From contig CM022672.1 in NCBI GenBank assembly GCA_012295275.1, positions 26,722,001-26,786,000 of the forward strand: a stretch of DNA of 64,000 bases, read 5' to 3'. Source of the DNA: Chrysomallon squamiferum. Taxonomy: Eukaryota > Animalia > Mollusca. Below the pieces are notes generated by a model that did not search any database, was not told the origin of the DNA, and worked only from the letters and a program-made list of their open reading frames with translations. Of the stretch, positions 2,001 through 46,326 are shown one piece after another. The translations under genes and the position numbers were made by a program. Positions within the stretch are counted from its first letter, which is position 1; each line of letters starts with the position of its first letter.

Positions 2001-3510
2001 ATTTTATTAAGTTTTCTAATGACAGTGTTGTTAATGAAGTATTTTATTAAGTTTTCTAATGACAGTGTTGTTAATGAAGTATTTAGTAAGTTTTCTAATG
2101 ACAGTGTTGTTAATGAAGTACTTTATTAAGTTTTCTAATGACAGCATTGTTAATGAAGTACTTTATTAAGTTTTCTAATGACAGTGTTGTTAATGAAGTA
2201 TTTAATAAGTTTTCTAATGACAGTGTTGTTAATGAAGTATTTAGTAAGTTTTCTAATGACAGTGTTGTTAATGAAGTACTTTATTAAGTTTTCTAATGAC
2301 AGCATTGTTAATGAAGTACTTTATTAAGTTTTCTAATGACAGTGTTGTTAATGAAGTATTTAATAAGTTTTCTAATGACAGTGTTGTTAATGAAGTATTT
2401 AGAAAGTTTTCTAATGACAGTGTTGTTAATGAAGTACTTTATTAAGTTTTCTAATGACAGCATTGTTAATGAAGTACTTTATTAAGTTTTCTAATGACAG
2501 TGTTGTTAATGAAGTATTTAATAAGTTTTCTAATGACAGTGTTGTTAATGAAGTATTTAGTAAGTTTTCTAATGACAGTGTTGTTAATGAAGTACTTTAT
2601 TAAGTTTTCTAATGACAGCATTGTTAATGAAGTACTTTATTAAGTTTTCTAATGACAGTGTTGTTAATGAAGTATTTAATAAGTTTTCTAATGACAGTGT
2701 TGTTAATGAAGTATTTAGAAAGTTTTCTAATGACAGTGTTGTTAATGAAGTACTTTATTAAGTTTTCTAATCAGTGTTGTTAATGAAGTATTTTAGTAAG
2801 TTTTCTAATGACAGTGTTGTTAATGAAGTATTTAGAAAGTTTTCTAATGACAGAGTTGTTAATGAAGTATTTTATTAAGTTGTCTAATGACAGTGTTGTT
2901 AACGAAGTATTTTATTAAGTTTTCTAATGACAGTGTTGTTAATGAAGTATTTAATAAGTTTTCTAATGACAGCATTGTTAATGAAGTATTTTATTAAGTT
3001 GTCTAATGACAGTGTTGTTAATGAAGTATTTTATTAAGTTTTCTAATGACAGTGTTGTTAATGAAGTATTTATTAAGTTTTCTAATGACAGCATTGTTAA
3101 TGAAGTACTTTATTAAGTTTTCTAATGACAGTGTTGTTAATTAAGTATTTAGTAAGTTTTCTAATGACAGTGTTGTTAATGAAGTATTTAGTAAGTTTTC
3201 TAATCACAGCATTGTTAATGAAGTATTTTATTAAGTTTTCTAATGACAGCATTGTTAATAAAGTACTTTAGTATGTTTTCTAATGACAGCATTGTTAATG
3301 AAGTACTTTATTAAATTTTCTAATGACAGTGTTGTTAATGAAGTATTTATTAAGTTTTCTAATGACAGAGTTGTTAATGAAGTATTTAGTAAGTTTTCTA
3401 ATGACAGTGTTGTTAATGAAGTATTTATTAAGTTTTCTAATGACAGTGTTGTTAATGAAGTATTTATTAAGTTTTCTAATCACAGTGTTGTTGATGATGT
3501 ATTTGATAAT
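2001..3510. repeat. Intronic minisatellite, 39-40 bp unit (ATTTATTAAGTTTTCTAATGACAGTGTTGTTAATGAAGT), about 38 copies
   Basis: Head-to-tail units are directly visible, with no spacers. The array ends just before the acceptor at 3523. Confidence 0.97.
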
Positions 3511-3523
3511 AAACTGTTTTTAG

Positions 3524-3638
3524 CTGCTACTCAAGAACAGATGGATGATGCTCGACTGGCCATTGAGCGACTGCTGATGAGTCGAATCTACACACATGCA
3601 TTATTTCCTAATGGTGACGGAGACTTCATGCGTGACCA
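3524..3638 (+). CDS. GAPVD1: GAPVD1 internal exon (AATQEQMDDARLAIERLLMSRIYTHALFPNGDGDFMRDQ)
   Basis: tttttag| acceptor and CA|gtgagt donor, 115 nt, phase 1 to 2. Helical-bundle region preceding the VPS9 core. Confidence 0.94.
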
Positions 3639-4047
3639 GTGAGTCGGTTTTACCTCAGAATAAATACTGTGTTGTTTCCATCACATATACTAGAATTAAT
3701 GTATATTTAATTTTATCTACAAATACACACACACACACAAGCACAGACACACAGAGAGTGAGATATATATTTTGTTGTTCATGTTGTTCATGTAAAATAA
3801 TCCATCCAGCAGCTGTCATTTTCTTAGAAAGACATTTGAGTTAATAAATATTAACATTAGTGAGATGTTTGTTCAGGTTTTGTTAAACCAGTATTTGTTC
3901 ATTCATCATGAAACAAAATCATAATCCAAATCAAAACTTCTCAAACTTTTTTTTTTCTTCCTACATTTTTAATATAATAATGATCATTATATAACCTATT
4001 GTATATATTACAACATAAAATAATATTATTTTTTGTATTAACTGTGC

Positions 4048-4083
<36 letters not shown>

Positions 4084-4209
4084 GCTTTAAAATTGGTTAC
4101 TGCAATCTTCTTGAAATTTCTAATTCATATATTTAACAAAATAAGAATTTAAAAAAAATAAAAGTTTAACCCTTTTTCTTTTTTTTTTCTTTTTTTTGCA
4201 AAAAAATAG

Positions 4210-4348
4210 ACTAATTTACCAGCACATCAAGAAACTGTCTCAGGTGATTACTCCGTTTCACAAAGATCTGGGCATCCCACGAATGTACCATTTCGAGTGT
4301 CCCTGGCCTGCTGCACAGCGAGAGATTTACATGATTAATGCTTACAAG
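4210..4348 (+). CDS. GAPVD1: GAPVD1 internal exon (LIYQHIKKLSQVITPFHKDLGIPRMYHFECPWPAAQREIYMINAYK)
   Basis: Acceptor (T-tract)gcaaaaaaatag| and donor AAG|gtatga, 139 nt, phase 2 to 0. PWP.AQ.EI..I.AYK motif of the VPS9 domain. Not in the ORF track. Confidence 0.93.
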
Positions 4349-4549
4349 GTATGATTAGCCATGTTGTCAGTCTCCTTGAGCGAGTCAGTGGAAAAACTTA
4401 TCAGAACAAGTTTGTTGTGAAGCATTTGGGATGCATGTAAAAGAAAACAGAAATGTGTGCTACTGGCATACATATATAGTGTTGATAGTATTGTGTGGTC
4501 TGCAGAGAGTTCAGTGGTGTTGGAGTGTATGCCAAGAATACAGTGTGAA

Positions 4550-4892
4550 TTGGTTCAGTTTGTGTAAATGGATGTTGTGTTACTATAGTTTGTGTGTTGG
4601 GTTTTGTGTTACTACATTTTGTGTGAATGGGTGTTGTATTACTTCCGTTTGTGTGAATGAGTGTTGTGTTACTACTGTTTATGTGAATGGATGTTTTGTT
4701 ATTACATTTGTGTTAATGGATGTTGTGTTAATGGATGTTGTGTTATTAAGTTTGTGTTAAAGGATGTTGTGTTATTACAGTTTGTGTTAATGGATGTTGT
4801 CTTATTACAGTTTGTGTGAAAGGGGTTTTTGTTATTACAGTTTGAGTGAATGGATGTTGTGTCATTAGAGTTGGTGTAAATGGGTGTTGTGC
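4550..4892. repeat. Degenerate ~30 bp GT-rich minisatellite (GTTTGTGTGAATGGATGTTGTGTTACTACA-like)
   Basis: About 11 imperfect copies visible in the last GAPVD1 intron. Confidence 0.85.
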
Positions 4893-5225
4893 TACTGCTG
4901 TTGCTGTTGTTATTATTATTATTATTAAAATGTTATTTTAGCATTTGCTAAAAGTAAAATTTATCCTGTACTTTGTGAAGTCTGAGGAAACATTTTCTAT
5001 AATAATAAATAAGATCTGGCAAAAAACTGAAATGGTAGTAACAGTTGTGTATGAAATTATGGTAGCTTATTATTACATTTGTAATTTTTATTCTTGTTGT
5101 TGTTGTTGTTTTTGTTATCAGTAACGATAACAATAATAATAACAGTAATATGCTATATAATAATGATGATAATAATAATAATAATAGTAGTGATTACTTA
5201 TTTGTTATTCTTTTCTCTCTCACAG

Positions 5226-5498
5226 ACACCAAAAGACAAGCTGCAGTGTGTGCTGCAGTGTTCAATGACCATCATGAATCTTCTCAGCATGGCCAACGAG
5301 AAGTCTGTCCCCGCGGCCGACGACTTCATTCCTGTGCTCATCTTCGTCATCATCAAAGCCAACCCCCCTTGTCTCCTGTCAACAATCCAGTACGTGAACA
5401 GCTTTTACAAGAACCGACTCGGAGGAGAGGAGGAGTACTGGTGGATGCAGTTTACATCTGCTGTGGAATTTATAAAGACTATGGACTATTCAGAATAG
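5226..5498 (+). CDS. GAPVD1: GAPVD1 last coding exon, VPS9 catalytic core (TPKDKLQC..ADDFIPVLIFVIIKANPPCLLSTIQYV..GEEEYWWMQFTSAVEFIKTMDYSE*)
   Basis: ctcacag| acceptor, 273 nt to TAG. Has the VPS9 ADD and GE..Y motifs, and the YWWMQF end is typical of GAPVD1/RME-6. Confidence 0.97.
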   Translation, partial: TPKDKLQCVLQCSMTIMNLLSMANEKSVPAADDFIPVLIFVIIKANPPCLLSTIQYVNSFYKNRLGGEEEYWWMQFTSAVEFIKTMDYSE

Positions 5499-6567
5499 TG
5501 CTATATATATATATACACATATACGAGGAAAAAAAAAAGAACAAAAAAAGCTAAATTTATAATTTAATTTCTCTTATGATTTGAGGTGCTGTGAATGAAT
5601 TGCGTTTTTGTTTTTTTTTCTCAGAATTATCATGTTGTTTATTCAGGGCAATCTTGACTAAGCCAAGATATCGTTCAGACAGGGATATTAGTTAACATGG
5701 GACCACACAGAATTTGTCTTCTACCACTGTAATGTCCTAATAATACTGTGTATGTAACTGTAAGCAGAGAATCATGCAGTGTCTTTATTAACATTAATAT
5801 CATTAACAACAAAACTGACCGTTTCTGACATTTAATTTTTCTTTATTTTTTCCTTATATAGTTAATATTATTATCATTTCTTCTTTTTTTAACCCCCACA
5901 ATTCTACTTTATTTTTGTTTTGTTTACTATTTTTTTTGGCTTTGTGGTAATATAAAACATCTTAAAAATTTTTAAAAACCATAGATTATCTGAAAAGAGT
6001 TTCAGGTATACTTAGTTGAAAATGTCTTTTTCAACCAGTAAACTGTGTTTAATGTCAAATTTGATTACATTTGTTTGAAATGTTTGAATTGAAAAAAAAA
6101 AAATTAAAAAATGCAACTAGAAAAGTAATGCAGAGGACAAATTGTATCCAGAAGAATTTTTTGTAAAAACATTTCCAGGTCTTAAATGAAAAATATAAAA
6201 TAAAATGAAATAATAATAATAATAATAATAATTAAATAAAATGAAATACAAATAAAATAACTGGAATATGGTAAAAGACAAATAAATAAAAACTGTCCTG
6301 CATTGCTGATTTTTATTCACAAATGCAGTATTGCATTTTTATCTCCAAGAAATAAATTACACAGAGAACAAAACATGAAACAGAAATCTGAATTAACTAC
6401 TTTTTTTCTTCGTTTTCATTTGGGAAAAGACTTTTCTTATTTTTCTGTTTATGTGATTTTAAAAATAAACAGAAAACTGATAATTTGAGATAATTCAATA
6501 ATATTCCAAATCTTATATTGGCAACCATAAAATACTAGTGAATTTATCAACTTGCATGCATACACTC

Positions 6568-6605
<38 letters not shown>

Positions 6606-9217
6606 CATAGAGTAATTAGTAGGCAGTGAATGGTACTGCAGTATTTCCTTATATTTTTAACAGTATTGTATGTTATTGTTTAAATGATTCATAATTCTGA
6701 AACCAGTTTGTATAAAACCAAGAAAGTATTTCTGTTTATTTCAAAAAAAGAAAAGAAAGACATAAAGTTTTTTTGTGTTTTTTTAACCCATGTAAATAAG
6801 TCACAAATGACAAAATTATTGTAATGGTTTTGCTGAAAAATGAGTTGGAGATAAGCAGCTTTATCTTGTGTAATTAAAAGGTGTGTGCACTGTTGATATC
6901 CAAAATCAGAATATATTTTATGAATGTTTCTTATGCCAATCTCATATTACATTACTTGAAAAGATTCACTAAATTTTAAGGTTGCTGATATTTGTTTATG
7001 CAGTACATTGTAGCACAAATATTTATATAAAAATAGTCGTATTCTGTTATCAGCAAAGCTTTAATTTGTAAATAGATTCATTATGGTTTTACTGCAATTC
7101 TGCCTTCAAAATACATAGTGTGCTTATATATACATATATTTAATACATACATGTATATATATATATATATATAACTGCAAATAAGATAGCTAAAAGTAAA
7201 TTAATATACAGTAAAATTTAAAAAAGAAAAAATCTTAGATTTGTTAGTGGGGTTTGTGGGGTGGTTTGTTTTTTGTTTATTTTGTGTGTGTGTTTGGTAT
7301 TCATTTTGGTTACTAGTCAGTTTTATAACATGTAGAAAGATAATGTGATAACTGCATAATAATGTGTATAAACTCATTGAATATTTATTTCTTAGTACAC
7401 TCTAATCACACATGAAATTATCTGTATAATCCACAAAATGTCCCTGATTAGTTTTGTTTCGTTATTTTATTTTATTATTTTTTGTTTAGCTGGCATTAAG
7501 ACAATTTACTTACTGTAATATTCAAGAGAGACATAAATTTTGAAAAATTATTTTATTCATAGCCAGAGTTTTCTTTATGTTGTTAAATATTTATAATTTC
7601 TAAAACCATAATTATTTTATGTGTATATACTCATACATGTTTTCTATAAATATTTTTCAATATGATAATAATTCATTGAAGAGGGTTGATTAAGATTAAA
7701 ATAAGTATGATTTGTACTTACAGGCATACCTAATCACCTTATTAAGAAAGGTTTTTAAGTATTAATCTCAGCCCATAACTTTTGTTCTATTAGATTCTTT
7801 AGTGACATCATCAAAATAGTCAAATTTTCTTAAGTGATTTAAATACATTCAGATTTGTATTGGAATTTACAATTATTCTGATTATTCTGGTGTATCATTT
7901 TGCACTGGCTTTCTGAATGATGTACCAGATGTAACAATCTTTTCTTAACAAGGTGACAAGACATGAAGGTAAGATTATGGCATTAATTAAGATTAATTTT
8001 TTAGATAATATAACACACCTACACATTCCTTTTTCATTTTTTAAAAACAACACGAAAAATATACATCATTTTTGTGTACTAAGTTTGTATCAAGCTTCCC
8101 CATAGGTCTGGAATCATAAAATAAAAAAAACAAATACTAAAGCAAATAGTCTTGCTAACAAAAAGTGTATATCACTGGGATAATAATTAAATCTTGAGAT
8201 ATTCTATGGGAAAAATAAACGTTACAATGAAGAGATTTTTTTTTATGCTGGTTACGTCCTTTATGTTTGCCAATTCTGGACATGATACCAACTTTATAAG
8301 CACTCAGCAAATATCTGATTATAATGGTTTTATTCACTGAAAGTGCACACTTGTATTTGAAGAACAGATCACAATAAACTACTAACCCACCAAACTCTTG
8401 GAGAATACAGCTATATTCATTCTTATAGACATATCATAATGTTAATTACTGTTACATGCTGAGTTATTTCCAGTTCCAACCAGTTGCTCCTTATGAAAGA
8501 CTGTTAAGTAGTCCTGACTAGATTTACATAAAAGATTGGTTGATAAGCCAGCTGAATGGTGGGATCAAACTACCTCGCTTTTATCATAATATATGTATTG
8601 GGGGGGGTGTTCATCTTGGGTTTTTTATTCACAAATTATTAAATTATTAATAAAAGCATATAAAAATTAATTAATAATGATTTTATTTGAAATAGGAATT
8701 ATTTTCATTTTATGATTCCAGACTTAATGGAAGCAGTATATAACTAAACTGTATTTCTTATATCATTCATTTTGTTGTATGTCAGTTAAATTTCACTATA
8801 TTTCTTATAACATTATATCCATATTTCGAAAATCTTACTAGATTTTTGGTTGTGTGTATGAAACATTTTGCTGAATTAATATATAAAGTTTTAATAAAAG
8901 TTTTTGATTTAATATTTATACATTAATATTTTATTATTTGGTATTAAAAATTATTTGTGTCTTTAATGTTAGTATTAATTTTTAAATATTATGATATATG
9001 TACTTTAATGATTTCTAACAACTTTCTTAAAATCAAGGCATAAAATAAAGCCGTTGAATGCTTTATTGCCAGAACTGGTTTTCAGAATGAATTACAAAAA
9101 AAAAAAAAATGAAGTATATAAAAATATACCTGAGATTTTTAAATTGGTGATAACCACAGCCCAGAATTAAACTATGCAATGAAGCAGAAGATTATAATGG
9201 TTAAAAATAAATGGCTG

Positions 9218-9270
<53 letters not shown>

Positions 9271-11732
9271 TATTTACATATACGAGTTTACACATTTGCC
9301 TACACAAACACATACTCGTACATAGATATGTACATATATATGCACATGCACACAGATACACACATGACATTGATACATTTATATACATTCACACGAACAC
9401 ACATATACATAGGTATACCTGTATATGTATGTGTGTAAACAGTCACACACACAGACATGGACACACCACAGCATCTTAAAAAAATTCTTGTATATCCAAA
9501 ACTATTAATAGAGTATGTAAATCTGTTACGTTTTACTGTTATCATTCCTCAGTGTTGAGTAACAAGTTTTATTACTAGACTGAAATCTATAGCATTCTGC
9601 TTAAAGCTTAAATGAGCTGGATCTGTCTTATTTATATACTGTGGCAAGTTGGTTGTGAAGAAGTAAAGCAGAAAATGATGTGAGTAACTATTTTTTAATA
9701 GATTTAACAGAAAATTAAATATAATAGTGGTTACATGTTTCTTCAATAAAAAAAACTTGAAGTAAATTAAGTATACTTTTCTGTTTCTTTATTAGGAGAT
9801 ACAGGTTGTGTGTGTGTTGTAAACATTTGGCTGAAAATAAAATAAATACTGGTTGTATGTTTAAATAAAGGTATGAAATTATGGAAGTCCCGTAATTTCT
9901 TTGTTGGGAGATGAATTGTGTGAATATTTCTTTTTAGATTTCTCTGAAATTCTAAATTAAAACAGGGTTGAAATTTGTGAATTATATTGAATTGGTTTAT
10001 TCATTTTAAACTGTGAAATCTAATTAGTCTGAAATTTCCAGTTTGTTGCATATTTTTTTTTTTTTTTTTTTTTTTGTAAGTGTATAAGTCTGTTTTAGTC
10101 AAGTATTAGTTTGTCAGTTTACTACAAAATAGCAATCTTCTGTTTTAATTACACAGATATTGATAGTCACAGTTTATGTCATTAGCCTCTTTGGTTTCAT
10201 CTGATTTATTTTAAATATTATTATTATTATTATTTTAATTTTTGAGACATGGTTTTTATTTTGTAGATGTATACCAAATTGTTGATTGTATTAATATCCC
10301 TTAAGTATATAATCTGTTTGTAAGTAAACTTACCATAATATTAATTATTATTATTATTATTATTATTATCAAATAAAAATACATTATTGCAACACATATA
10401 ATTAATAATTATGGTTTCTGTGTTAGAATTAATTATTGTTCAAAACACACACAAACAAAAAAACAAAAAAGTAATAATAAATTAGCTCATCACTGAGGTC
10501 ACTGATTTTCACAGTGCAGGTTTACTTTGTAGATAAATTTCAGATATTTAACATTTAGTGAAATTTTTATTTTTTGAGTTTAGGTTTTTAACATTACTGA
10601 GGTTTTGGGTTTTGTTTGTTTGATTTTTAAAGAGGGAGGATGATTGATTCTAATTCACTTTTCAGTTGTTTTTTTTTTTTTTTTAATTTAAAATTTGTTG
10701 ATGGGAATTGCAGTAAATGACTGGGCCATACGTTTTTTTTTGGGAAGGTTTTTTTAGAATTTTTTATTAATAATTCCTATACTTAGTTCTTGTTTATTAT
10801 TTGCATAACATTAAATCTTTAAATTAACATTGCAAAATTAAATAAACAGATAAAAAAAATAATAGGTTAAAATAAAAAAATCATCCAACAAATGTAGAAA
10901 ATATTTTTAGATAAAAGAAATTATTGAAATTTTTATATGAAAAAAGTGTGATATATATATATATATGTTATGTGTGTGTGTATGTGTGTATGTAAGTATT
11001 TAATGTATAACTGGAATATATGTCTATAAATATCTGTTAAAAGTTATAAAACAACACAGACTTGGAATGTAAAAAACAAAGCAAAAACAGTATTTTAATC
11101 ATCTAAATATGTTAAGCTCTAGAATAATACATGTTACCAAATATGTAGTTACATTACAGCAAAGATGCAGTAAATAAATACAGTAAATTATTATTCTTAT
11201 TTTTTATTTTATTTTATTTTAAAAGAAGTGTTAAGAATTTTAGCATATAAACTGAGATAGATGCTTAGATTCAAAAGATATTTGGAACTGAAAAAGCAGT
11301 ATTATTTGATTCTGTTTGTTATTCATAAAGACTGGATTACATAGATTTTAGCAAGGCTTGTAATTGTTGAAGAAGAGCACAGCTTTCATTCAAAATAATG
11401 TTTTCTGATAAATAATTTTATAAGCAGCATTTGCTTGCCATGTTAAGTATTGTCAAACTACCTCCAATTAGCAAATTAATGTCAATTTTATATATGAAAG
11501 TTAGTGATTCTCAGTTTCAAGTATTTGTTTCTTGATTAAAATGTGAGCAGCAGAGATTGCATACATTTTATTCTAGAATTAATTATTATTACTATTATTA
11601 TTTTTTTTTTTTTAAATAATTATTAATGCAGGTTAAACCTTCTTTCTATTTTATTACTTTTTTTTTTTTTTTTTTTTTAAATATATATTAATAGTGGTTT
11701 TTTCATGTTTTTTAAAGGTTTATTTAAATTTA

Positions 11733-12620: not shown

Positions 12621-13001
12621 TTTGATTATTTGTAAATGTATTATCAGCCATTTATTTAAAATTAATTTTATTTACTTTTTATATAACCTAGTGCAGTATT
12701 CTAAAAAGTTAAAGCTGTGTTCAGATTTGCTATTTAAATAAGGTGATATTTTTTTTTTTTTTTTTTTTTTTTCATGTTAATACTGAAATACTCCCATTTA
12801 GCTCTCTGTATAAAATATACATTATTAATTTCTTGGAGTGGATTATGTAATTACAAACTGTGTTGAAAATATAACACAGTAGTTTTAGAGATCAATCTAT
12901 TATAATCTTTCATTTGGAGTTTGTCTTTTGTTTTTCTCTTTTTATCCATATAGAGTTTGTTTTTTAACAAATTCAAGATATTAATGATAAATTTTGTTTG
13001 G

Positions 13002-13891: not shown

Positions 13892-15979
13892 TTATTTTAT
13901 TATATATCTTTATTTTATTTTTATTATTTTTCTTTATTTTGTTTATTAATTTACATATTGATTTTATTATATATATATTTTTTTTAAATATATTCTTTAG
14001 AAATGAAATTCAATAATTTTGTTCTCATCATTTTTGCCAGTCTCACTGAACAGGCTGCACTTAAAAACTTATTTACAAAAACTGTTTATGTCCATCCATT
14101 ACATACACTACATAAAGCAATACACAACCATTTTGTTTTTTTATTAAAAATTATTTTTAAAAACTCAAAACATATATTACATGTACATTATTTTATAAAC
14201 GGTCCCTGAAATAATATTATAATATCAAAGCACATATAAAGAGAAAAAAAAATTGATGCAGTAGCTCAGACACAAAATTAATTTGGAGGTAGAAAGTATT
14301 TAAAGATTTTTCTCTGCAATATATTTAAAATTAAAATAATAATAATAATAATAATTACAATAATAATTTTATTACCAGTATTCATTTTTGTGATGGACAA
14401 AAAAGAAGAAAAAACAACAACAATAAAACAATTACAGTTAAACTTTAATAACAATAAAGTAACAAAATCGTAACTTGTATCAAACTCTTGTTTACTATTT
14501 TATTTATTTATTTAAATTTATTTAATTTGTTATGAACTAACAAAAAAAAATAGGACCACAAAATATTGGAAACAGCAATAAATATATTTTAACTTTTGGT
14601 TTTATTTGGCCTAATTTTATATTTATTAAATTGAAATAAAATTATGGATATTATCTTTTTTTATTTGGTTACATTTAAATAATTTATATATGATTCCAAT
14701 ATAAATGAAAGTGAAAGCTGAACAATTTAATGGGATATATATATATATTTGGCTAGAAAGATTCATGTATGTACCAATAAAAAACATGAAATACAAAAGG
14801 ACTATATATATATATTTATATATATTTACTTTATATACATTAAAATACAAACACCACCATGTAATGTGAATTTAAAAGCAATACAGACATGTTACACAAT
14901 TATACAAGATTATGAAAACAAAATCATGACTATAATTTTATTTTAATATATGTAATAAGCTGTGATTTATTAAATGCTTTTTGTTCGAGCTGTCTCAAAG
15001 TTCATCTCAACCATTTATTTGTATGACTGGATTTTGTACAATCATTCTAATGTCTAATCATAACTTGAACATTGTTTAGCTAAACTAGTTTGGTTTAGCA
15101 TAATGGCTTTTAACTCTAATGCATCTAACAGTGATCTTATCAATTAAGATACAAATGCTTGATTCCTGACTTTTAATAAATTTGATAAACTGACGAACAT
15201 ATTCAAGAAAAAAATAAAAATAAAAATTAAGGGAAGTTAAAACACATCAACTGAAAACTGTTGACCAGTACTTGTACAAAGCCATTGTAACAGAGTACCC
15301 AAACAAGAAATTTTCAAAACAGTGCTACCAAAATTAGTTGGTAAATGTAAATGTTTATCCTTGCTCAACAATGACATCAAAAATATTACTTAAAATTCAA
15401 ATACCCTTTATGCTAATTATGTTCATAAATTTTTTACTTCTATTGCTTACTTCATAACAGGCAATTTATCATCTGTTCCAGCTTAAAACTCATCTTATGA
15501 CTGCTTATCATTTGCAATTACACTTGAATTAAAATTTACAATGTCAATAACAGCCATTTATTTAGTTTATATTAAAAATAAATAGTAATCATTTGTCATT
15601 TTCATTCACTAAACAACACTGTTAAAATTCTGATCAACCAAAAAAAAAAAGAGGTAAATCACAAATATATACATCTTTATACAAACTCAAGATAAAAAAA
15701 AAGGAAAGTAAATTACGATATGCAAAATGTTTGTGATTAACAGAAAATTATTAGATTTTGTGAATCAAATTTTCTTTTGAAAAAAATCAAAATCAAAACA
15801 TCATATGATCGGTTATTTTGGAAATTTCTTTACAGCTGCATAATAGTTACATATAAACTGCCATTTCTCATTAAATCTTGGCATGTCAAAGTCATAAAAT
15901 ATGACACTATATTCTTGGAGATAAGGCAGATTTGCTCAAGTTCGTATGTGGTTGAAAATATAAAAATGACACCACTGTT

Positions 15980-16186
15980 CTAGAATTCTGTTTTTTGTCC
16001 TCGTTTCACAAATGACTGCAACAGGTCAATAGGTAAAGGGAAAATAATGGTGGAGTTCTTTTCTGCTGAGATGGTATTCAGAGTCTGGAGGTATCGGAGC
16101 TGGAGGGCAGCAGGTGATTCAGAAATGACATCAGCAGCTTCTTTGAGAGCTCGTGATGCTTTCTGTTCTCCTTCTGCAGCTATCAC
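15980..16186 (-). CDS. STOM: Stomatin last coding exon ([68 protein letters not shown])
   Basis: cacacag| acceptor, 207 nt. [10 protein letters not shown] and [10 protein letters not shown] are hallmark stomatin motifs. Confidence 0.97.
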
Positions 16187-16505
16187 CTGTGTGCAGGTAA
16201 AACGGATTACAATTATTTTATCTATATGTGTCTATCACACACGTCCACACTGTTATTTTGTTGGCATGTTATTATTACTTATTTATTTTATTTTTTATAA
16301 ATATTAAAAAGTTTTATTGAGTTTGTATTACATCTGATAATGTAATAATGATTAATCTAATAAATATTTATTTTAATTATATATGTTAAAGTGTATAATA
16401 CAGTTCCAAATTTGGTATGTTTTAACAGACTAAGTTTTAAGAAAATATAAAAACAAGTCTGAAACGTAAGTTTGACAAATCTATTTCAGTTTCAGAAAAT
16501 CTTAC

Positions 16506-16584
16506 CTTAGCTCTAGCTTCTCTGGTAGCTTCTGCTTCAGCGGCCATAGCTCTCTGCAGTTGTACAGGCAGACGGACGTCTTTA
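16506..16584 (-). CDS. STOM: Stomatin exon (KDVRLPVQLQRAMAAEAEATREARAK)
   Basis: gtatag| acceptor and AAG|gtaag donor, 79 nt, phase 2 to 0. Coiled-coil AMAAEAEA motif. Confidence 0.96.
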
Positions 16585-18531
16585 CTATACACAGAAACAT
16601 TTACATTTGAAATATTATATTTTAAGTTATATATATAAAACATCAGAAATCACTAGAATTAAGACTGCAAAAACTTTGTTATAAACTTGAAATATTTAAA
16701 ATAATTGTTTTAACAATCTGAAATAATTTAACTTGTCTATACGTTATTTATACTTAGTTTTGTTCATAATCATAGTCATAAATTAAATATTTTTAAAATA
16801 CTCATTACAAGGTTGTTGATACTGAAACAAACTAAAATTAATATTTCTGAATTTGGAAAAGAAATTTCTTAATAATTTTCTGTTAAAAATAAATAATTTA
16901 CCAAATTTCTGAGTCTGTTTTAAGAAAATTAAAATATATATATTTTTTTTACATAATATATAAACTATACTCAAAGAAAGAAAAAAAGTTTTTCTATTAT
17001 CTGACATTAAGGAAACAGAACAACTGAATTGGAATTTAAATACATTATTAGTTACTCTGGCATAATCATTGTTACTTCAGATAAAGTCTGTAGAATACTG
17101 TTATTTCTGAATTATTTCTGTTTTATTTCTACTCATGACTCAGGCAATGCAGAGCTGTCACAATGTTGACATGGAAAAAGGCTTTTAAACTGCCCTCAAA
17201 TTGCAAGGTCTGGGTGGTGTTACCCATGTAAAGAGTAATGATTAACAAAATGAGAGAGAATATTTGAATATTCTGTTACCTTGTGAGATGACACAAGATG
17301 ATACAGACCATAGTGCATCTGGTTCACATAACTGATTTGCATATGTTTACTCAACAGTTAACTGATACAGCTCTGAAGGACATTCCAACTAAACCTATTG
17401 TGATTAATTGCCATCTGTGCAATTCCATTGTCCTTCATGCTATGTTCAAAGGGAATAACTGAGTAATGGAAGACAGCAGCACCAAATAACCAAATCTGGT
17501 GTGTGAACATACTATCTTTCAGTAAAAGGCTTGAGAAGCATAGTACATTTTACTCTCTCATTCTTTCTACAGAATACTCTTGTCAAAATTATCAGTGACA
17601 TTAAAGTTGTAGTTCCTTGTCAATTGGTATAATTCATTATTTCTAAAACTGCTTAATTTGTTCAAAAGTATATTATTAAACAGAACAAATGTTAAAATAT
17701 AAACATGCAGTAAATTTAATACAAATAATCTAAATAATGTTAAAACTATAGCTTTGGAATATCCTAAAAAAAACCACCATATTTAAAATAAATAAATAAA
17801 TAAATAAATAAAACTATTGTGAAATTAGTCTTTTATAGTTAGTTATTATGATAATAATATAAAGTAAAGTATACAAAGCTTTTTTTTAATTATTGAATAC
17901 AGAGAAGATTATAATAATAATTTTATTTTATTAATTTTTTATTTTTTTGTTTAGTAAAAGTTAATAATTCATGAAACAATTAGTATATAACAAAACTATT
18001 TAAATAGTTTCTCTTTTGTAATACTACTGGCTGCAATTGGAACAAAATTATTGTTTTTTTCCCCAATTTTATTTATTTCATGCATGATAAGAAAACCAAA
18101 AATTCACTTTCTAAACTTCAAGATAATCTGTTAAAATATCAGTTAAATTTCAAAATATGTGTTGTCTTAAAATGAAACTATATGATGCTGTAGATCTCAA
18201 AACTATTTTTTTGAAAATAAGCAGAGACAAAAAAGGCTTGTGAAAAAATATCAAAAGAGCCATCTTTAAGTATGTATGCTTATAAAATTTATTTATTTAC
18301 TTATTTATTTCTTTATTTTGCTGAATGCTTCACATTTTTAGTATAACAAGTCTACAATCCATGTTAGCAACTCTATTCACAACAAAAAATCAATGTGCAC
18401 ATGTTTTTAGACGATAAGAAATAATAACAATAAAAGTTGTATGGGTGAATACTCTCTGGATGGCTCAGATGAATGGATAAAGCAAGCCACACAAAAAATA
18501 AGCATTCTGTTAATACAGGTTTCATACTCAC

Positions 18532-18587
18532 ACTTCAACACGCTCCACTTTTACACCCCATGGATCGGTAGCTTCATCAAGACTTGA
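18532..18587 (-). CDS. STOM: Stomatin mutually exclusive exon B, canonical (SSLDEATDPWGVKVERVEV)
   Basis: ctctttag| acceptor, GT|gtgagt donor, branch-like CACTGAC at 18614-18620, 56 nt, phase 0 to 2. Confidence 0.95.
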
Positions 18588-19356
18588 CTAAAGAGTAGAT
18601 GGGAAAAGTTTTTGTCAGTGCTAAATTCACATGCCTTTTCTATTGTTACTCAATCTGCAGCCATTTGTTTTAGTTCACAGTTTGTACTTGTTAGAGAAGG
18701 TTTTGTTAAAATTAAATAATAAAATTGGGGATAAGGCAGTTAATTTTTTGAAATTATGTTAGTTAAAAAAATATATATTTTGCTATGTGTTTATATAAAT
18801 AATAAATTAAAAAATAATAATAAAATAAATTATGCTGTAAGCATAAAAAGTAAATAAATAGTAAAGTAAAAAATGAAAATAAAAAATAAATAGAAAATAA
18901 AATGGAAAATTGAATGAATAGCTTAATAGCTAAAATAATTCAGAAGCAATTTTTTTTTCCATCCATTTTGTTCATATGCACAATTTTTTTTTTTTTAAAT
19001 CATATATTATTAGTTTATGCTTGATTTGTTTTCTTCACTTTATTAATTACAAATGAAACAAAACAAATGGCTGTAGATAAATAATGCAACAAAAGAGGGA
19101 ACATAAACATGTAATTGAAAACCACATTAAATGATGAGAAACAGTGCTACTTGCTATATAGAATGGTGTTAATGCTAAGCAAACAATCCAGACATGATGT
19201 TCTTAATGTTTGCAAGAAAAATTCTGATACTTACTGCAGGAAAAATGACAAATACATTTTTTTGTTTTAAATTTCTACAAATATAATCTCTCAGATTGCA
19301 AATTTAAAAAGTCAGTTTCTAACTTTGTCCTAATACAACTGATGCAATTTCACATA

Positions 19357-19392
<36 letters not shown>

Positions 19393-19537
19393 TCTTTCCG
19401 TTTATTTTAATATTATTACTTTTTTGATTTTTGCAACATTAATTAATTTTGTTTCATAACCATATCTGGATCTTTCTAACCAGCATATAGCACAACACAA
19501 CTACATGCAAGACCAGTCCTTGTGTTGGTGTACTTAC

Positions 19538-19593
19538 ATTTCAACACGCTCAACACAAATACCCCACGGCTCAGTGCACTCATCAAGATTAGT
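19538..19593 (-). CDS. STOM: Stomatin mutually exclusive exon A, variant (TNLDECTEPWGICVERVEI)
   Basis: gttgcag| acceptor, AT|gtaagt donor, 56 nt, same phases as exon B, open frame, clearly paralogous peptide. Confidence 0.9.
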
Positions 19594-20926
19594 CTGCAAC
19601 AGTATGAATTTCAAGTCAACACGCTTGACTTGTCACATGCATATATAGACTGAGGCAGTGACAGAATGTTGTGCTTTATGCTGAATAACTGATATTATAA
19701 TAATAAAATATATCGGGAAAAAATCATAATCTTAAATATTTTGGTTTATGCTGACTCAGCTATAATTAAATGTTTGGTAAACTTGTAACCTTATTAATCA
19801 TTTGAATTATGCTGAAACTATTATAAATTTAAAAAAAAAAAAAAAATAAATTATTTTTTTAAAAATCATAAATTGATTTCAAGATGATATATGACTGTGC
19901 GTGTGCGTGTGTGTGTGTGTTTAAAAATCAGTTCCTTTAAGAAATTTTGTGCTTTATGTAGAATAACTTATATAATGATGAAATGTTTCTATAACATCAT
20001 CATAAATGCATTACAGAACTGGAATGTTTGAAAAAATTAATATAAGTTAATATAATTTATATTGAACATGCGGCTTAAGTATAATCAGTATTATTTGAAA
20101 GATTACATGTTCCAAAAAAGATGATATATTTTGATGAATGGTTTAGAAAATATGATGCATATTCAGATCAAATATTAGAAATGTTGTATTTCACATTGTA
20201 TGTAAACATTTTATTTTCAATTTTATCATCAATATAAAGTTTATTCTTAATAACTAACACATGATCAGTTGTTTAGAAAATATTTTGTTATCTTGTGCTA
20301 CATTTAACTGTTGTTGTATTAACTATAAGTTTAGTTCACAAGGAAAAATAGGAATAATTGAAAACATTTTAATAACTATCTTTGTAGATGTCAAATCTGG
20401 TTGAACAGAATTATTTCCCTTCTTTATATAAATGTAAACTGGGTGAAAAGGAATTTGATCCCTTAAATTTCTCTACTAAATTAAAACCATTCTTTATTAT
20501 TATTACTATTTAAATCTGTTTATTTGTAAAACAAAGGTTAAGTCATTTCAAAGATAAAAAAACAACATCTGAACAAACTGTCAACTATAGGGTGATAATA
20601 TAAACATTTTAATAAAATAAAAAAAGACAGGACAAATTTACAGAAAAGGGGAGATAATTACTTCTGTCATGGAGTGTGTGTACAGATATAGATAGACACA
20701 TAGACAGACAGACAGACAGATAGATAGATAGATAGATATAGATAGATAGGTATTCACATTATAAAATATTTTTAAATGGATTTTTTAAAATAAATTAATT
20801 AAATAATAATAAGAACAACAACAACAAAAATAACAATAATAATATAAAATAATAAATAAAAACAAATAAAAAAAACCCAATATATTATATAATAAATAAA
20901 ATCGAAATAAATAAATAAATAAATAC

Positions 20927-21130
20927 CTGCATAAGGTGACTGATGGATTCCCTCTCAGACAGAATTTCACTGAGATTTTTAGTTCCCAGGACGTTTCTCA
21001 GAGTTGTGGCTGACAGAAGACGTGTTGACCGGTTCGAATCCTCCACATTTGTGATCGACATGGTAGCATTTTGTACCCGGTAATATACAACAGCATCCAC
21101 AGCAACTGTCACTGAATCCTTTGTCAGTAC
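20927..21130 (-). CDS. STOM: Stomatin exon (VLTKDSVTVAVDAVVYYRVQNATMSITNVEDSNRSTRLLSATTLRNVLGTKNLSEILSERESISHLMQ)
   Basis: attcag| acceptor and CAG|gtattt donor, 204 nt, SPFH core. Confidence 0.97.
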
Positions 21131-21137
21131 CTGAATA

Positions 21138-21235
21138 GAAATGAAATGAAATGAAATGAAATGAAATGAAATGAAATGAAATAAATAAAATAAAATAAAA
21201 TAAAATAAAATAAAATAAAATAAAATAAAATAAAA
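21138..21235. repeat. (GAAAT)9 plus (AAAAT)n pentanucleotide microsatellite abutting a stomatin acceptor
   Basis: Directly visible. Confidence 0.92.
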
Positions 21236-21556
21236 AAAATAAAAAAAAAAAAAAATAAAATTAAATTAAAAAATAAAATAAAAATAAAATCATATAAAAA
21301 ATTATAAAAATAAATTTGTCTTTAAATTCTAAAAAAATGATAACTGTTTGTCTTAAATCTAAAAATTAATTAAAAAAAATAATAAAATAAAATAAAATAA
21401 AGAAATTTTAAAATTTTGAACAATGTACATGAATAGAAGTATTATTTATAAAAACATTTTCTCAGGTTTGTACTGCAATAATGTTGTATTTTCTGCAATA
21501 TAATATTTTGGTTTATTATGGAATTTCTCTGTAAGATCAAGTCTGATTTTAATCAC

Positions 21557-21639
21557 CTCCTGTGGTGGCACATCAAATGATACTGTCCTCATGTCTACCT
21601 TGGTGTACTGGTCCATGCAGGGAATAATGAAAAACAAAC
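21557..21639 (-). CDS. STOM: Stomatin exon (GLFFIIPCMDQYTKVDMRTVSFDVPPQE)
   Basis: tttttcag| acceptor and GAG|gtgatt donor, 83 nt, phase 1 to 0. Contains the conserved IPC cysteine. Confidence 0.97.
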
Positions 21640-22100
21640 CTGAAAAAGAATGAATGAACATATAACAACAATACATGAGTAAAAACAATTAACATTACCT
21701 GCTGTTAATTAATCAGATTTTACAATAAAAATAATTTAAAAAAAAACCTTTCAGAAAACAAAGAAAAAGAATTTTTATCATTTTAAACTGAAGTAGACAA
21801 CTTCAAAGAGTGGAGGGAAAGTAAATAAACAAAAAATAAACAAAACTTTAATTAAATATTTATAAACAAAAAATTAAATAAAATTAAAACAGTTTTTTTT
21901 TAATTCAGAAGAATAACTAATTGTCTGGCAGATCATTATAAATTTAGTGATAAATTTAAATATTACAACAATGCTCAGAAAGAACATTTTTTCAACATTT
22001 AATAAATTTAAATTTATTTAATATTAATCTATTAAACATACCAAAAAATATGAATAAATAAATAAATAAATATAATGAATACAGTCAATCTAATATTTAC

Positions 22101-22173
22101 CTGGTCCTTTGGCCCCACCAGATACAAGTCGCCCAAGTCGAAAAATGACAGCTCTTTCATATTCCTGAACTAC
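22101..22173 (-). CDS. STOM: Stomatin exon (VVQEYERAVIFRLGRLVSGGAKGPG)
   Basis: ttactag| acceptor and CCAG|gtaaat donor, 73 nt, phase 0 to 1. EYERAVIFRLGR signature. Confidence 0.97.
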
Positions 22174-22339
22174 CTAGTAACAGAAAATACAAATATCACA
22201 TTAGAGATATATTTCATTTCATTATAAAAATAATGATGCTTGCAATAAATAGGACATTTACTATGTTAACAGACAATTATAGTCTGTATCTGACTGTTTG
22301 GTTTTCTCCTGCTTAATCTTTTTAATAAAGCTTTCTAAT

Positions 22340-22740
22340 TTCTCAGAACTATCTCCCTTTTGTTAATTCCTTGTAACTCTTTTTCTCTCTTAACTCTCCT
22401 TTTTCCCTCTTTCTTTATAAACCTCTTCTTCATTTCTCACTTCTTAACTTTAACTCTCCTTCATCTTTCTCTCTTAACTTTCCTATCTCTCTCTTAACCT
22501 TTTCTAACTCTTTTTATTTGTCTCTTCACTCTAATTCTCCTCTCTCTATCTCTTATAATGCTTTCTAACTTCCTCTTTATCTCTTAATCTTGTCTATATT
22601 TCCCTCTTTTGCATTGATAACTTGCTAAACATTCTCTTTCTGACTCAGTCTTACAGTCATCTAGATAATTTCTTTATCTCCTTTTCTGTAGATAACTAAT
22701 AATCCAGATATATAAACTCCTAAATAAATCTCTCTTATTC
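22340..22740. repeat. CT-rich low-complexity tract with recurring CTCTTAACT
   Basis: Directly visible pyrimidine bias on +. Confidence 0.75.
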
Positions 22741-25298
22741 TTGTTTTTAAATTTATATAAGCTACTGCTGAATTATATTGAAAGATGTGTGGTTCAGACA
22801 CTAGATTATGCATTCTTTTTAAATGTTTGCATAGCCCTAAAATTAGAAAACGTCTTCAAGCAAACATGTTTCCTAATGTATGTGAGACCAATGCCATGTG
22901 CAAGCTTTAAAAATAGAAGAAAAAGAAGGAAAAAAAAAGATCTAAAACGATCCTTGCTAAATAAAACTAGCACACTCAAAAATAAAATGCTTTATACAGC
23001 CAAGTTATTGATTCTTTCAGTTAATGTGAAAATTCCAGCAAAAGATAGCCTAGTTTAGGTTTTACACAAACCATTCTGTAATCACCCTCTGCTGTAAAGT
23101 GGTGGAGAAAACATGTTAGATTGGTTGTAATACCAATAAATAGCCAGGCTAGTACTGAAGCCTGGAGCAAAACTAACACTGAGCCACCATTTTGAAAGTC
23201 TGTAACTGTGTGTTGAATTAGAGTAAACATCACAAATATATCTTCATGACTGAAACGAGAGACTATCAAATGATCTGAAACCTGTTGCCCTTTACCAGTA
23301 CAAACTGTTATATGTGTAAAATCAATATGGTTTTATGCAAGCCCATTGTCAACGGTGTTTAAGACTGTTTTATGATTTTATATAAAATATGTTAAATATT
23401 ACAGCTGTTGCTTTTTCTGTTTACCAAACAAATTACTTTGGCTTTCTGTTTTCTTTCCTTTGTTTTTATGATGTTATGTTATATTATGTTATTCTTATTA
23501 TTAATTTTCATTGAAGCAAAATGACCTAAAATCAACCAAAATCATTAGGCTTACCATTAATTTTGTATATTTTAAAACATTGTAAAAATATTTAATGCTA
23601 CAAAGACAGTTCAGTAAACATACAGAAATGAATAGATGTTCTCTCAAGTGAAAATCTGAACTTGTACCAAACACATGTATCATAATTAAATGAACATAGC
23701 TCACTGACATACACTCAACTCAACTTTCCACTAGAATCAATGGGCATAACATCACATTAAGATTCTAAAGCCAAACAAAAGCAAGTCGGTTGTACAAATT
23801 TTTACACATAAACAAAATAACATGAAGAGGTCAACTTTGAAAAAACAAATTATGCAAAATGACACTCAGTTTTCAATAATTTAAAAACAAAATCTTTCAA
23901 ACAGCATTACCTATGAAATTTTTTAATTTTTTTTTTTTTAATACACACATATATAATTACTTTCATTTGTTAAGTAATCTTAACTTTAACTGATATATAA
24001 ATATGAAGAATCTCAAAACAATTCCACTGGTATGAATACTGATGCTCTACACAGATAGACAGACAGATACAGATGGACAGCTAGACAGAGAGATAAACAG
24101 ATTGATATAAGGAATTTCAATATCAAATATTTTGTTCTAACCATCTCAGTTAAATCTGCCTCAGTGTTTTAACTGTTGTTATAAATTATACAAAAGTATG
24201 TCAACAACAAGGGGAAAAAAATTATTATTTTACTTTTTATAATATTAACTATAAGCTGTGAGAAACACAACATGCTTTATTTCTCTATGAAGGAGAATGT
24301 AATAAAAACAACTATCATTAATTATTAATACAAAATGTTCTATAAACACACTAAGTGCTTTGTTATATTTTAGTATTTGTCAATAATACTTGTAACACTA
24401 ACAGCTAAACTGTTTCTCACTTTGATAATCGACCAGCTAAAACTTTTCACAATTCTTATGTTCAGGCAGACACTGTTATTTACTGTCAAGGATCAAGAAG
24501 AGACACTTAGTCTACAGTAAAAAGTTTTAAAAAATTGCACAGCTCTAATCAAGCTGCAGTTTATAAACCTCTAGCAGAGTTATAGTGAGAACACTTGCAT
24601 TTTGTTCAATTTTCTTCTTTCTTTTTTTTTGCTGGACTGAAATATGTTAATCATTAGAATATGAAATATTATCTTTCAGAACTGCTAACAGCTTTATTTA
24701 CTGTCTTTGGTAATAAAAAAAAGAACATTAATACCAGACACTTTATCTACTTGATTTAACCAACCTGTTATCTCTTATTTAACTCAAATAAAATATTTTA
24801 AAAAGTTATTTTCTTTGACACAAATTTCAAGTTTAATTATGTTGGTGTTCCATCAGACAATGTATTTGGCTACTTTGTTATAAATGACTTTCAAAACAAT
24901 AATTTAAAAACAAAAAAGATAAAATATATTAGTGCACCCATATCACACTTCAGTTATTACAAAAAGAAATGTATATTACAGAAAGACATATCTTTTCATT
25001 CAGTCAGTCCTAAACCTATCTTCTTACTAAGTTTTTTCCACAGATACAAAAACATTCAAAGTAAAATTAAAAAGAAAATATTTTTGTGACCCTATTTATT
25101 TATTATTGTTGTTGTTGTTGTTATTATTTTCTTGTGACCCTATTTATTTATTTATTTATTATTGTTGTTGTTGTTGTTAGTAATTTTATTTGTATACATT
25201 TTTATTTGTATTTATCCTTCAAAAAATTTTTATGTATACATTTTTTCAACATTAAAAAAAAAAATTATCATTAACAATAATTCTAAATTTAAAAAAAA

Positions 25299-44399: not shown

Positions 44400-45730
44400 A
44401 TAAACGAATAAATAAATAAATAAATAAAATAAAATAAACCAGTTAAAATTATTCTAATTTTTTCTCGTAACTGTAACAAAGAAAATACCAGACAACTGGC
44501 TGTATTTTCAAAATGTATTTTTATTTGGGTTGTATTTACTGTATTTTATTGAACTATTAAAGTAGCTAAATACATAATTTGTAAATTACCCGATACAGCA
44601 CGTATCTTTTATTATAATTTAGTGATCGTCTCAGCTTCTGTGTTTATTGCAGAAGGCAGCTGCGAGTTTCAAGAGCTGCAGACGTAAATATGTTATAGAA
44701 CAATAATTATATATTGTGTAATATAATTATACTGCCTACCTGATTCCATATCGACTCTCTGAAATCCTTGATCTGCCTTATCGTTTGCCATTGGGTCAAA
44801 AAACCCTTGTCGTTAGCGGAATAAACAATTAAATGTAGTAACCACACTTCGCCGATGTTTTTACGTTGCTATCTAGGTCACAAATCACGGGACCTATTTG
44901 ATTGCACAATTTAGTTTGTGAAGAGATGGCTTTTGTAAAAGTTTATCTCAAATGTATATACTCATAATTTTCATTAAAAATATAATCTTGTCCACTTCTG
45001 CACTTAAAGTATTGAATACGAAAATAGAGCTTTAAAATGTCATGTACTCATTATCTTCTGCTATAAAAGTGAGGTCTCCCGAATGTGACGTCATTGACAG
45101 GTACCTATTTGTGACCTTTCAGCTGAAAATAGTAATACTGAATATTCATGAGCAGCCGAATACACTATCCTCGGAGTTCTTGCCCTTGTTATTAACTGAC
45201 AATGAGCGCCATATGAAAATAGTTAGTGTGGAATTAATGAAGCTTTTCTTATTTTGAATATTGTATCTAAGGTAAGCAAACAAGCATGTTTCGACACACC
45301 ACACACTTTTTGATTTACGTGAATCTGATTAAATAAAAGTAAACTGATAAAATAAAAGCTTATGAACAAACGGCTTAATAATCATATTAGCAGTTCGCGT
45401 TTCAGGGAACAGAAATGTTTGAATTCTGATTCTTCTCCCCCATTCTCCCTCTTCCCTTTGCCCAAACCAGCACGAGGCACAATCTACGCTCACTTGAGTG
45501 GCGTTTACGATTAATATCGACCGTTCTGCTGTGTACATCTTAGAGTAAAATCAGCATTATTATGTCGAACAGAGTTTCTCCAGATCCAGAGGAAAATTTA
45601 CTCACAGACGAAAAGAATCGGCAAGTAAACGACAACCACACAGGGCCAGTATTTAGGGGTAGTCTAAAGGGTAACTCCGAAATCGAAATGACTGAAAGAC
45701 CTTCAACAGCTAAATGCGATATTGTTTATG
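44400..45730. promoter_or_regulatory. CpG-retaining bidirectional promoter region (stomatin on -, unknown gene on +)
   Basis: CpG density rises sharply against CpG-poor introns. Divergent ATG exons at 44791 and 45562. TATAAAA at 45062-45068, TGACGTCA (CRE) at 45086-45093, Inr-like TCATT at 45091-45095. Confidence 0.7.
44740..44791 (-). CDS. STOM: Stomatin first coding exon (MANDKADQGFQRVDMES, phase 1)
   Basis: ATGG start and CAG|gtaggc donor, 52 nt. In frame with the 27455 acceptor and inside a CpG-retaining region. Gives an 870-nt CDS (289 aa). Confidence 0.78.
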
Positions 45731-45733
45731 GAG
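45562..45733 (+). CDS. First coding exon of an unidentified gene (MSNRVSPDPEENLLTDEKNRQVNDNHTGPVFRGSLKGNSEIEMTERPSTAKCDIVYG, phase 1)
   Basis: 172 nt, protein-like hydrophilic composition, strong GAG|gtaagt donor, in a CpG-rich promoter. No convincing downstream exons in the window. Confidence 0.72.
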
Positions 45734-45749
45734 GTAAGTGTAATTAGCA

Positions 45750-45766
45750 TTTATTTATTTATTTAC

Positions 45767-45813
<47 letters not shown>

Positions 45814-46326
45814 CTGTTTATTAATTATATTTATTTATTTATAATTTTATTTTAATTTTTTAATTTTAATTTTTTTATTTACTATTATTTTTATTTATTT
45901 ATTTATTTATTTGTTTTGTTTTTCTGTTTCTTTTCGTTTTTTGATACTTTTGAAAAGAAAGATGACGTGTTATTTGAATTACATATTATTTTGTTAAAAG
46001 TACAATTATTTTATTAGTTTTAAATTACATACAAACTGGTGTTATAATAATAATAATAAAAACTAGAATAAAACAAATAAAAAACCCTATCCACCCAGCA
46101 TTCATTATTATAATACAAATGCATATATTTTTTATTAATTAAATAAATTAAATGAACTAATGAATTTTAATATAATTTTATGGTTATTAAGTACTAAATA
46201 TGTTTTGTTTAACACAACATCTGTTACCACAACTCCATCAACTACTGATAATGTCTTACAGAAAATGCTTTTAGCTGTTGAAGGTTATTAGTAGTAGTAG
46301 TAGTATTTTTATTATTATTATTATTA

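Follow-up and report, generated by a model that had tools for sequence, protein, structure and literature searches.

A candidate two-state RNA switch at a pair of mutually exclusive exons in a mollusc stomatin gene

Results

Gene context and alternative exons

The window, by which we mean the whole 64-kb stretch of DNA that was analysed, has the composition of AT-rich animal DNA (GC content, 0.21-0.32). The first-pass annotation had assigned the gene studied here to the stomatins, and Pfam (PF01145) and homologues agree in identifying a mollusc stomatin/mec-2-like gene on the minus strand (Table 1). The protein segment encoded by exon U is 99% identical to proteins of the gastropod Gigantopelta aegis, with Haliotis coming next among the closest named proteins, so that the animal is probably a gastropod. 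A likely alternative first exon of the gene is located at 44732-44791 (minus strand), 17 kb upstream of the next exon. It resembles the start of Gigantopelta isoform X2, and relatives show several N-termini. The last exons of a VPS9-domain gene (PF02204, E 3e-28), which has an in-frame tandem repeat at 3262-3642, occupy 3262-5498 on the plus strand and converge on the stomatin gene.

Table 1. Mapped and predicted features of the stomatin locus, in order of transcription (positions in the window)
Feature	Position	Strand	Remarks
Stomatin gene exons upstream of U	27438-27337, 22173-22099, 21640-21551	-	tblastn, ends approximate
Upstream constitutive exon U	20927-21130	-	204 nt; SPFH/Band 7 domain; AG/GT ends; PF01145, E 4e-10
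Selector a1 (5' arm of S0)	19667-19683	-	Upstream of exon A; 7 bp + A.A + 9 bp with 19481-19497
Perfect 8-bp hairpin over TGTTGAC	19612-19632	-	P 0.90-0.99 in both predicted states
Alternative exon A	19538-19593	-	56 nt; TNLDECTEPWGICVERVE(I); weak pyrimidine tract (0.53)
CAACACAA (5' arm of stem 1 in the first-pass annotation)	19520-19527	-	After the exon A donor; predicted partner, exon A 19551-19558
Docking element	19476-19508	-	Downstream of exon A; pairs with a1 (S0) or a2 (extended stem 2)
Stem 2 middle arm, 5' side	19461-19471	-	Pairs with 19186-19196; P 0.88-0.99 at 37 °C
Stem 2 inner arm, 5' side	19431-19442	-	Pairs with 19203-19215; where the middle arm is able to form, P 0.69-0.77 (37 °C)
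Stem 2 inner and middle arms, 3' side	19186-19215	-	Sequence and predicted folds
Selector a2 (split)	19107-19156	-	19144-19156 with 19481-19493; 19108-19117 with 19498-19507; replaces the 19152-19159 register
Stem 3, 5' arm (core 19060-19078)	19045-19092	-	Core P 0.97-0.98 in every fold holding it
Stem 3, 3' arm (core 18653-18671)	18643-18689	-	Arm present; helix scan against shuffles
b1 (5' arm of S4 or outer extension of stem 3)	18626-18643	-	Its end lies 6 nt ahead of the exon B branch point
Exon B branch-point consensus CACTGAC	18614-18620	-	Followed by a strong pyrimidine tract (0.88)
Alternative exon B	18532-18587	-	56 nt; SSLDEATDPWGVKVERVE(V); common form in databases
b2 (3' arm of S4)	18227-18244	-	11 bp + A.A + 6 bp; would loop out exon B
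Downstream constitutive exon D	16506-16584	-	79 nt; completes the split codon; KDVRLP...
Stomatin gene exon beyond D	16186-15983	-	tblastn, ends approximate

Exons A and B have the features of tandem-duplicated exons: they are identical at 39 of 56 nucleotides, share length and phase, and have AG/GT ends. Either exon alone leaves the frame open to the same stop, each ending in a split codon that is finished by exon D. The acceptor of exon A is weaker than that of exon B (pyrimidine tract, 0.53 versus 0.88). The first-pass annotation took the two exons to be exclusive, and the annotated proteins of relatives bear this out. The segment is readable in 108 of 120 homologues, none of which holds both exons; seven of the 108 are of the A type (Cys before Thr, ending ERVEI). 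Homologues and cluster members together yielded six isoform pairs that differ solely in this exon, from Babylonia (two genes), Patella, Mytilus edulis, M. galloprovincialis and Argopecten. All five Gigantopelta isoforms among those listed are of the B type. On the strength of these sequences, exons A and B appear to be a real, old, mutually exclusive pair, common to gastropods and bivalves.

Inclusion of both exons shifts the frame and leads to a stop 101 nt before the last junction, and skipping of both does the same with a stop 79 nt before it. As a rule, transcripts whose stop lies over 50 nt ahead of the last exon junction are subject to nonsense-mediated decay (NMD). NMD is thus likely to remove both kinds of transcript and, given the two frameshifts, offers a simple rival account of exclusion: protein splicing factors, unequal splice sites and NMD would together make the exons exclusive, and the RNA stems described below would be real but would serve housekeeping, shortening the intron and hiding cryptic sites. 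We rate this account as possible, though on the doubtful side. Lengths that shift the frame in this way characterise 60% of human clusters of mutually exclusive exons according to the accessible part of PMC5740500, but the same text reports joined reads in only 22% of such clusters.

An incompatibility between U2 and U12 splice sites was considered and rejected. With the U12 donor consensus as yardstick, the donors (GTAAGT and GTGAGT) and acceptors (CAG and TAG) show no mixture of spliceosome sites.

Predicted pairing in the intron between exons A and B

The first-pass annotation described six arm pairs that fold this intron into three successive stems, and we found every arm in its place. The core of stem 3 forms 18 of 19 pairs, as claimed; its single mismatch is A.C on the transcribed (minus) strand and would be G.U on the plus strand, and its 7-bp extension contains one G.U on the minus strand. 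The description of stem 2 also holds, with a G-U pair in the minus-strand RNA of the 11-bp arm and one bulge in the 12-bp arm. The annotation had put the distance left between the exon A donor and the exon B branch point at roughly 100 unpaired nucleotides; we computed 97 nt, compared with about 920 nt in linear sequence.

The predicted ensembles support these stems only in part. Pairing probabilities (P) were taken from ViennaRNA ensembles at 37 °C unless stated, and the energies of the helix scan are based on nearest-neighbour stacking values and are approximate. Stem 3 and the two inner arm pairs of stem 2 are plausible. Stem 1 and the outer arm pair of stem 2 are not: their P is 0.00-0.01, forcing both costs 7.6 kcal/mol, and their 8-mers each match at 6-9 places in the window. 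Stem 3 outscores every other helix of the intron (-34), and none of 300 block-wise dinucleotide shuffles reaches this value (best, -33.4). The 11-bp arm of stem 2 scores -24, which the best helix of 16 of the 300 shuffles equals or exceeds; in one fragment, its P falls to 0.02 at 15 °C. The first-pass annotation had proposed comparing the folding energy with dinucleotide-shuffled controls, and for the whole intron the result is only modest (z = -1.37, with three of 20 shuffles as good). The z-scores of the individual domains are -1.85 for stem 2 and -2.69 for stem 3.

Two splice-site-like sequences lie within these stems. In the 5' arm of stem 3, a run of pyrimidines precedes a cryptic CTACAG that resembles an acceptor (AG at 19072-19071). 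At 19229-19245 (minus strand), in the loop of stem 2, an acceptor-like TTTTTCCTGCAG shares a single G with a donor-like GTAAGT and could be either a decoy or a site of the recursive type. Both suit the account based on protein factors and NMD, as stem 3 pairs the former and stem 2 loops out the latter. So does the presence of stem 3 and inner stem 2 in each of the two predicted states described below.

In the 3' UTR region, a 19-nt stretch at 15550-15568 (minus strand) is 89% like the 3' arm of stem 3 and could pair with the 5' arm (13 bp with one G.U). This pairing is probably due to chance, because its 9-mer core also occurs at 12645 and 9209.

A helix around exon A and a shared docking element

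Tiling of the window for strong helices revealed a further helix, S0, outside the coordinates of the first-pass annotation. S0 pairs 19683-19667 with 19481-19497 and loops out exon A. It comprises 16 bp and has no equal among 500 shuffles; it is matched by eight of 586 non-microsatellite pseudo-exons (11 of 816 if microsatellites are included). In the same test for enclosing helices, the constitutive exons U and D reach only -9 and -14. The 3' arm of S0 consists of the bases that the first-pass annotation divided between stem 1 and outer stem 2, and the docking element to which it belongs includes the 3' arm of that stem 1 and the 5' arm of that outer stem 2.

The docking element is complementary to both a1 and a2 in mutually exclusive ways, and forcing one pairing abolishes the other, which is the arrangement of a docking site with competing selectors. 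Pairing with a2, which extends stem 2, has a P of 0.92-0.93 in the full fold and 0.00 when S0 is forced. The energy gap between the two states is 0.7 kcal/mol in a 751-nt fragment and 2.0 kcal/mol in a 1521-nt fold, in which extended stem 2 beats S0 (P of 0.92 versus 0.04). S0 precedes extended stem 2 in the order of transcription: its P is 0.93-0.99 in each of six prefixes of the transcript whose ends lie between 19470 and 19100, that is, over the next 370 nt. The model is sensitive to temperature: cooling one fragment from 37 to 15 °C lifts the P of S0 from 0.23 to 0.98.

Two local hairpins are predicted at exon A in these folds. The TGTTGAC covered by the upstream hairpin is the sole branch-point-like motif that a motif scan found within 45 nt upstream of exon A. 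Downstream, CAACACAA is predicted to pair with exon A around the donor with a P of 0.83 when S0 is forced and 0.00 when extended stem 2 is forced; stem 1, for which the first-pass annotation had used the same bases, has a P of 0.00 in both cases. Direct masking of the exon A donor was rejected as a mechanism, the unpaired probability of the donor being nearly the same in the two states (0.73 versus 0.67).

Upstream of a1, degraded direct copies of its motif occur at 19735-19771, 19796-19826 and 19943-19979. They pair with the docking element at -13 to -15 kcal/mol, compared with -27 kcal/mol for a1 itself, and may be spare selectors or relics of local duplication. The arms sit in islands with a GC content of 0.29-0.42; that of the loops is 0.17-0.20.

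These findings bear on the reading of the first-pass annotation, in which one static fold of three stems brings the exon A donor too near the exon B branch point for joint use. In its favour, the folds predict stem 3 and inner stem 2 well, and the alternative register with a2 still gives two abutting long stems, which leave 71 nt. Against the static fold stand the negligible probability of stem 1 and the outer arm pair and the energetic cost of forcing them, and also its inability to choose between the exons. Moreover, steric interference between splice sites limits the distance from donor to branch point to about 50 nt, according to the accessible part of PMC5740500, and both 97 and 71 nt exceed this limit; steric interference was rejected as a cause of exclusion for this reason. 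Bringing the exon A donor near the exon B acceptor would, if anything, favour joining of A to B. We consider the static fold very unlikely. What stands of the structure-based exclusion device proposed by the annotation is the real exon pair and helices that exceed those of shuffled sequences; the single static fold does not.

The exon B side

A helix that we call S4 (18643-18626 with 18244-18227) abuts stem 3. Helices as good occur in two of 500 shuffles and around 13 of 586 pseudo-exons. In a local fold, S4 has a P of 0.95, but this drops to 0.02-0.12 when stem 3 is present, as S4 loses to the outer extension of stem 3. The local fold round exon B is unremarkable (z = -0.55). Whether S0 or extended stem 2 is forced, the P of S4 stays at 0.10-0.12, and the two ends are therefore predicted to be uncoupled. 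Extended stem 2, stem 3 and S4 together would leave 44 nt between the exon A donor and the intron past exon B, an arrangement that the model does not favour. We also rejected a relay in which freed a2 pairs with b1 and blocks S4: the P of the relay helix is 0.05, and S4 is unchanged between the states.

How unusual the helices are

Four helices of -24 or better lie within 19720-18200, and none of 300 shuffles gives even three. Among 80 real tiles of the genome, however, eight hold three or more such helices. After a complexity filter, which three of the four helices here survive, three of the 80 tiles remain, two of which look like tandem repeats. The thresholds and search windows for these counts were set after seeing the data. 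The cluster of helices thus exceeds shuffles but is not unique in the genome, and its position round exclusive exons is the main argument for a function.

The frequency of such tiles bears on another explanation, in which the arms, having no role in splicing, arose by chance or were left behind as neutral traces of small mobile elements or local inverted duplications in a genome rich in AT. Non-microsatellite helices of about -31 near 7750-7965 and 45700-46285 are consistent with it, as are the direct copies of the a1 motif and the modest z-score of the whole intron. So is the strand bias of stem 3, whose duplex is more stable as plus strand (-26.9) than as transcribed strand (-22.2); its A.C mismatch appears to count against selection on the transcribed strand, though not if the RNA is edited there. 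The exon A domain has a z-score of -2.20, and the plus strand again does better (-3.87). On the other side, four of the helices compared, some with G.U pairs among them, are more stable on the transcribed strand, although this test is biased. S0 surrounds a conserved coding exon rather than an element, and the helices adjoin one another and splice signals. The first-pass annotation had named arms from a dispersed MITE family as the finding that would speak against it, and the arms of stem 3 have no dispersed copies in the 64 kb: no further copy of the core was found in the window at ≤2 mismatches, and no target-site duplication was seen by eye at stem 3. Rfam gave no match at E up to 1 over 15000-24000. 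Weighing both sides, we think it unlikely that the arms are relics or chance complementarities.

The scan also recorded strong non-microsatellite inverted repeats at about 7750-7965, 9244-10765 and 45699-46285, which are possibly small mobile elements.

Comparative and sequencing-read evidence

In a contig from a relative (organism C), exon A with its splice sites is identical at 68 of 73 positions and the flanks are unlike, which fits purifying selection on exon A. The comparison of the flanks covers 30 letters on each side and ends short of the arms of S0. Within these 30 letters of a single contig, comparison by eye shows GTTGAC kept upstream, 12 nt further from the exon. After the donor, an 8-nt stretch could pair, in a register different from that of the window, with the last bases of the window's exon A; such a complementarity would arise by chance about one time in ten (hand estimate) and is a hint at most.

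A genomic pattern for the A-type exon had no matches in metagenome contigs and genome contigs. The general exon pattern matched 117 loci of other animals in 23 of the collection's 64 parts; the mollusc pair was absent from all of these loci, and none resembled the arms convincingly. At one locus of another animal (L022), two tandem copies of the same stomatin exon lie 128 nt apart (6001-6036 and 6129-6164, minus strand); another (L099) has three matches to the same exon. No copy at either locus is of the Cys type. Their sequences suggest independent duplications, and the short intron of L022 could permit steric exclusion.

Reads from four of the 12 runs listed, two of them RNA runs, were searched over 19425-19800, a segment that contains exon A only. 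They gave one unspliced contig with two differences outside all arms (X8), one 35-nt piece that is apparently a chance match (X9), nothing (X10), and the exon A of the relative (X11). The two differences in the X8 contig are at 19731 and 19736, at a depth of about 4, in or beside a degraded copy of a1. Neither of the two RNA runs yielded a spliced exon A contig over 19425-19800, which proves nothing about splicing.

The protein segment encoded by the swapped exon

Counted from an alignment, the swapped exon corresponds to residues 176-194 of mouse stomatin. Leu178 and Thr182 belong to a hydrophobic pocket that mouse stomatin needs to inhibit ASIC3, and the exon leads into the dimer strand at Val197 (both from the accessible part of PMC3433786). 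Exon A encodes a cysteine at position 181 in all nine named mollusc A-type proteins found. A cysteine at the position of mouse Ala181 is present in 27 of 252 motif matches, nine of them from named molluscs. Ticks, mites, horseshoe crabs and a scorpion are likewise among the named sources of stomatins with this residue; the sequences noted in this connection are proteins P0214, P0218, P0219, P0222, P0232, P0234-P0236, P0241, P0242, P0252, P0261, P0265 and P0269 and locus L026. From these sequences, Cys181 may be a recurring functional variant.

Discussion

Arthropods and a few vertebrate genes provide established cases in which RNA structure guides the choice of exon. We compared the stomatin locus with several such systems, each through the accessible part of the paper cited. 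Human ATE1 (PMC7797038) similarly has duplicated exons, 7a and 7b, and elements R1 and R4 that compete for R3 between the exons; the inter-exon element pairs either upstream of the first exon or further downstream, and pairing round the first exon represses it. In ATE1, however, the selectors are the pyrimidine tracts of the exons, which are conserved and have been tested by mutation, whereas the present case consists of sequence and predicted folds; here a1 is found 74-90 nt upstream of exon A, and the two parts of a2 about 520 nt upstream of exon B. ATE1 also has a 30-kb pairing, R2R5, of which the local counterpart here, S4, is weak.

The Drosophila srp exon 4.1/4.2 and Dscam exon 9 double hairpin (PMC4691838) have one helix per exon and use the exon outside the loop, as is proposed for the stomatin locus with S0 round exon A and S4 round exon B. 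The helices of srp cross as a pseudoknot and have no common site. In the stomatin gene they are serial, S0 competes with a stem inside the intron, and S4 finds little support in the folds. Insect Dscam, 14-3-3zeta, Mhc and MRP share the principle of one docking site with more than one selector, and hymenopteran MRP has several intronic stems (PMC6071210), but the docking site of these insect clusters is located outside the exon cluster and not between two exons as it is here. In C. elegans mec-2 (PMC8934639), splicing also diversifies a gene of the stomatin family, but by means of terminal exons and one large cassette exon under the control of the protein MEC-8; the accessible text contains neither the term 'RNA structure' nor a swap of SPFH-domain exons. 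A mechanism of this kind is thus already known (PMC6071210), and the present locus is a credible candidate in a mollusc stomatin gene.

The first-pass annotation had suggested that the device was possibly undescribed. Among the matches listed by our literature search, with most subscription journals outside its reach, we found no description of a mutually exclusive stomatin exon or of such RNA pairing in molluscs, yet RefSeq already annotates both isoforms.

Our preferred reading is that the stems are half of a predicted two-state RNA switch that is centred on the docking element and biases the choice of exon, backed by NMD. In our judgement, the chances of its being right are about even. Complementarity and frameshifts are seen in the sequence, the folds are predicted, and the effect on splicing is modelled on ATE1 and srp. 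In the default state, which would favour exon B, a1 would pair with the docking element once the latter has been transcribed, and the weak exon A would be looped out. The hairpin over the exon A branch point would be present in both states, and the second hairpin would close round the exon A donor in this state only. Inner stem 2 and stem 3 would fold the remaining intron, and the upstream intron would extend as far as exon B with its strong acceptor. A kinetic preference for hiding exon A would fit exon B being the common form.

In the minor state, a2 would capture the docking element to form extended stem 2, freeing exon A from the loop. The exon A donor would then be carried past exon B by an end-to-end stack of extended stem 2, stem 3 and possibly S4. 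The silencing of exon B in this state is the weakest step of the model. Since both shift the frame, transcripts with both exons or with neither would be removed by NMD, a step that the proposed switch shares with the account based on protein factors. The latter leaves unexplained the helix round exon A and likewise a shared docking element with two partners of nearly equal energy.

In its fullest form, the proposal would be that the layout of the switch is conserved across molluscs, with one helix for each exon and a docking element poised between partners of near-equal energy, that it sets the ratio of two stomatin forms differing next to a hydrophobic pocket involved in channel regulation, and that it may act as an RNA thermometer in a cold-blooded animal. 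We regard this full form as improbable.

The whole candidate switch lies within about 1.5 kb and is testable in one minigene. A swap of the exon over the pocket residues gives the difference between A and B a plausible function, and since the pair is common to gastropods and bivalves, the two forms probably regulate ion channels differently.
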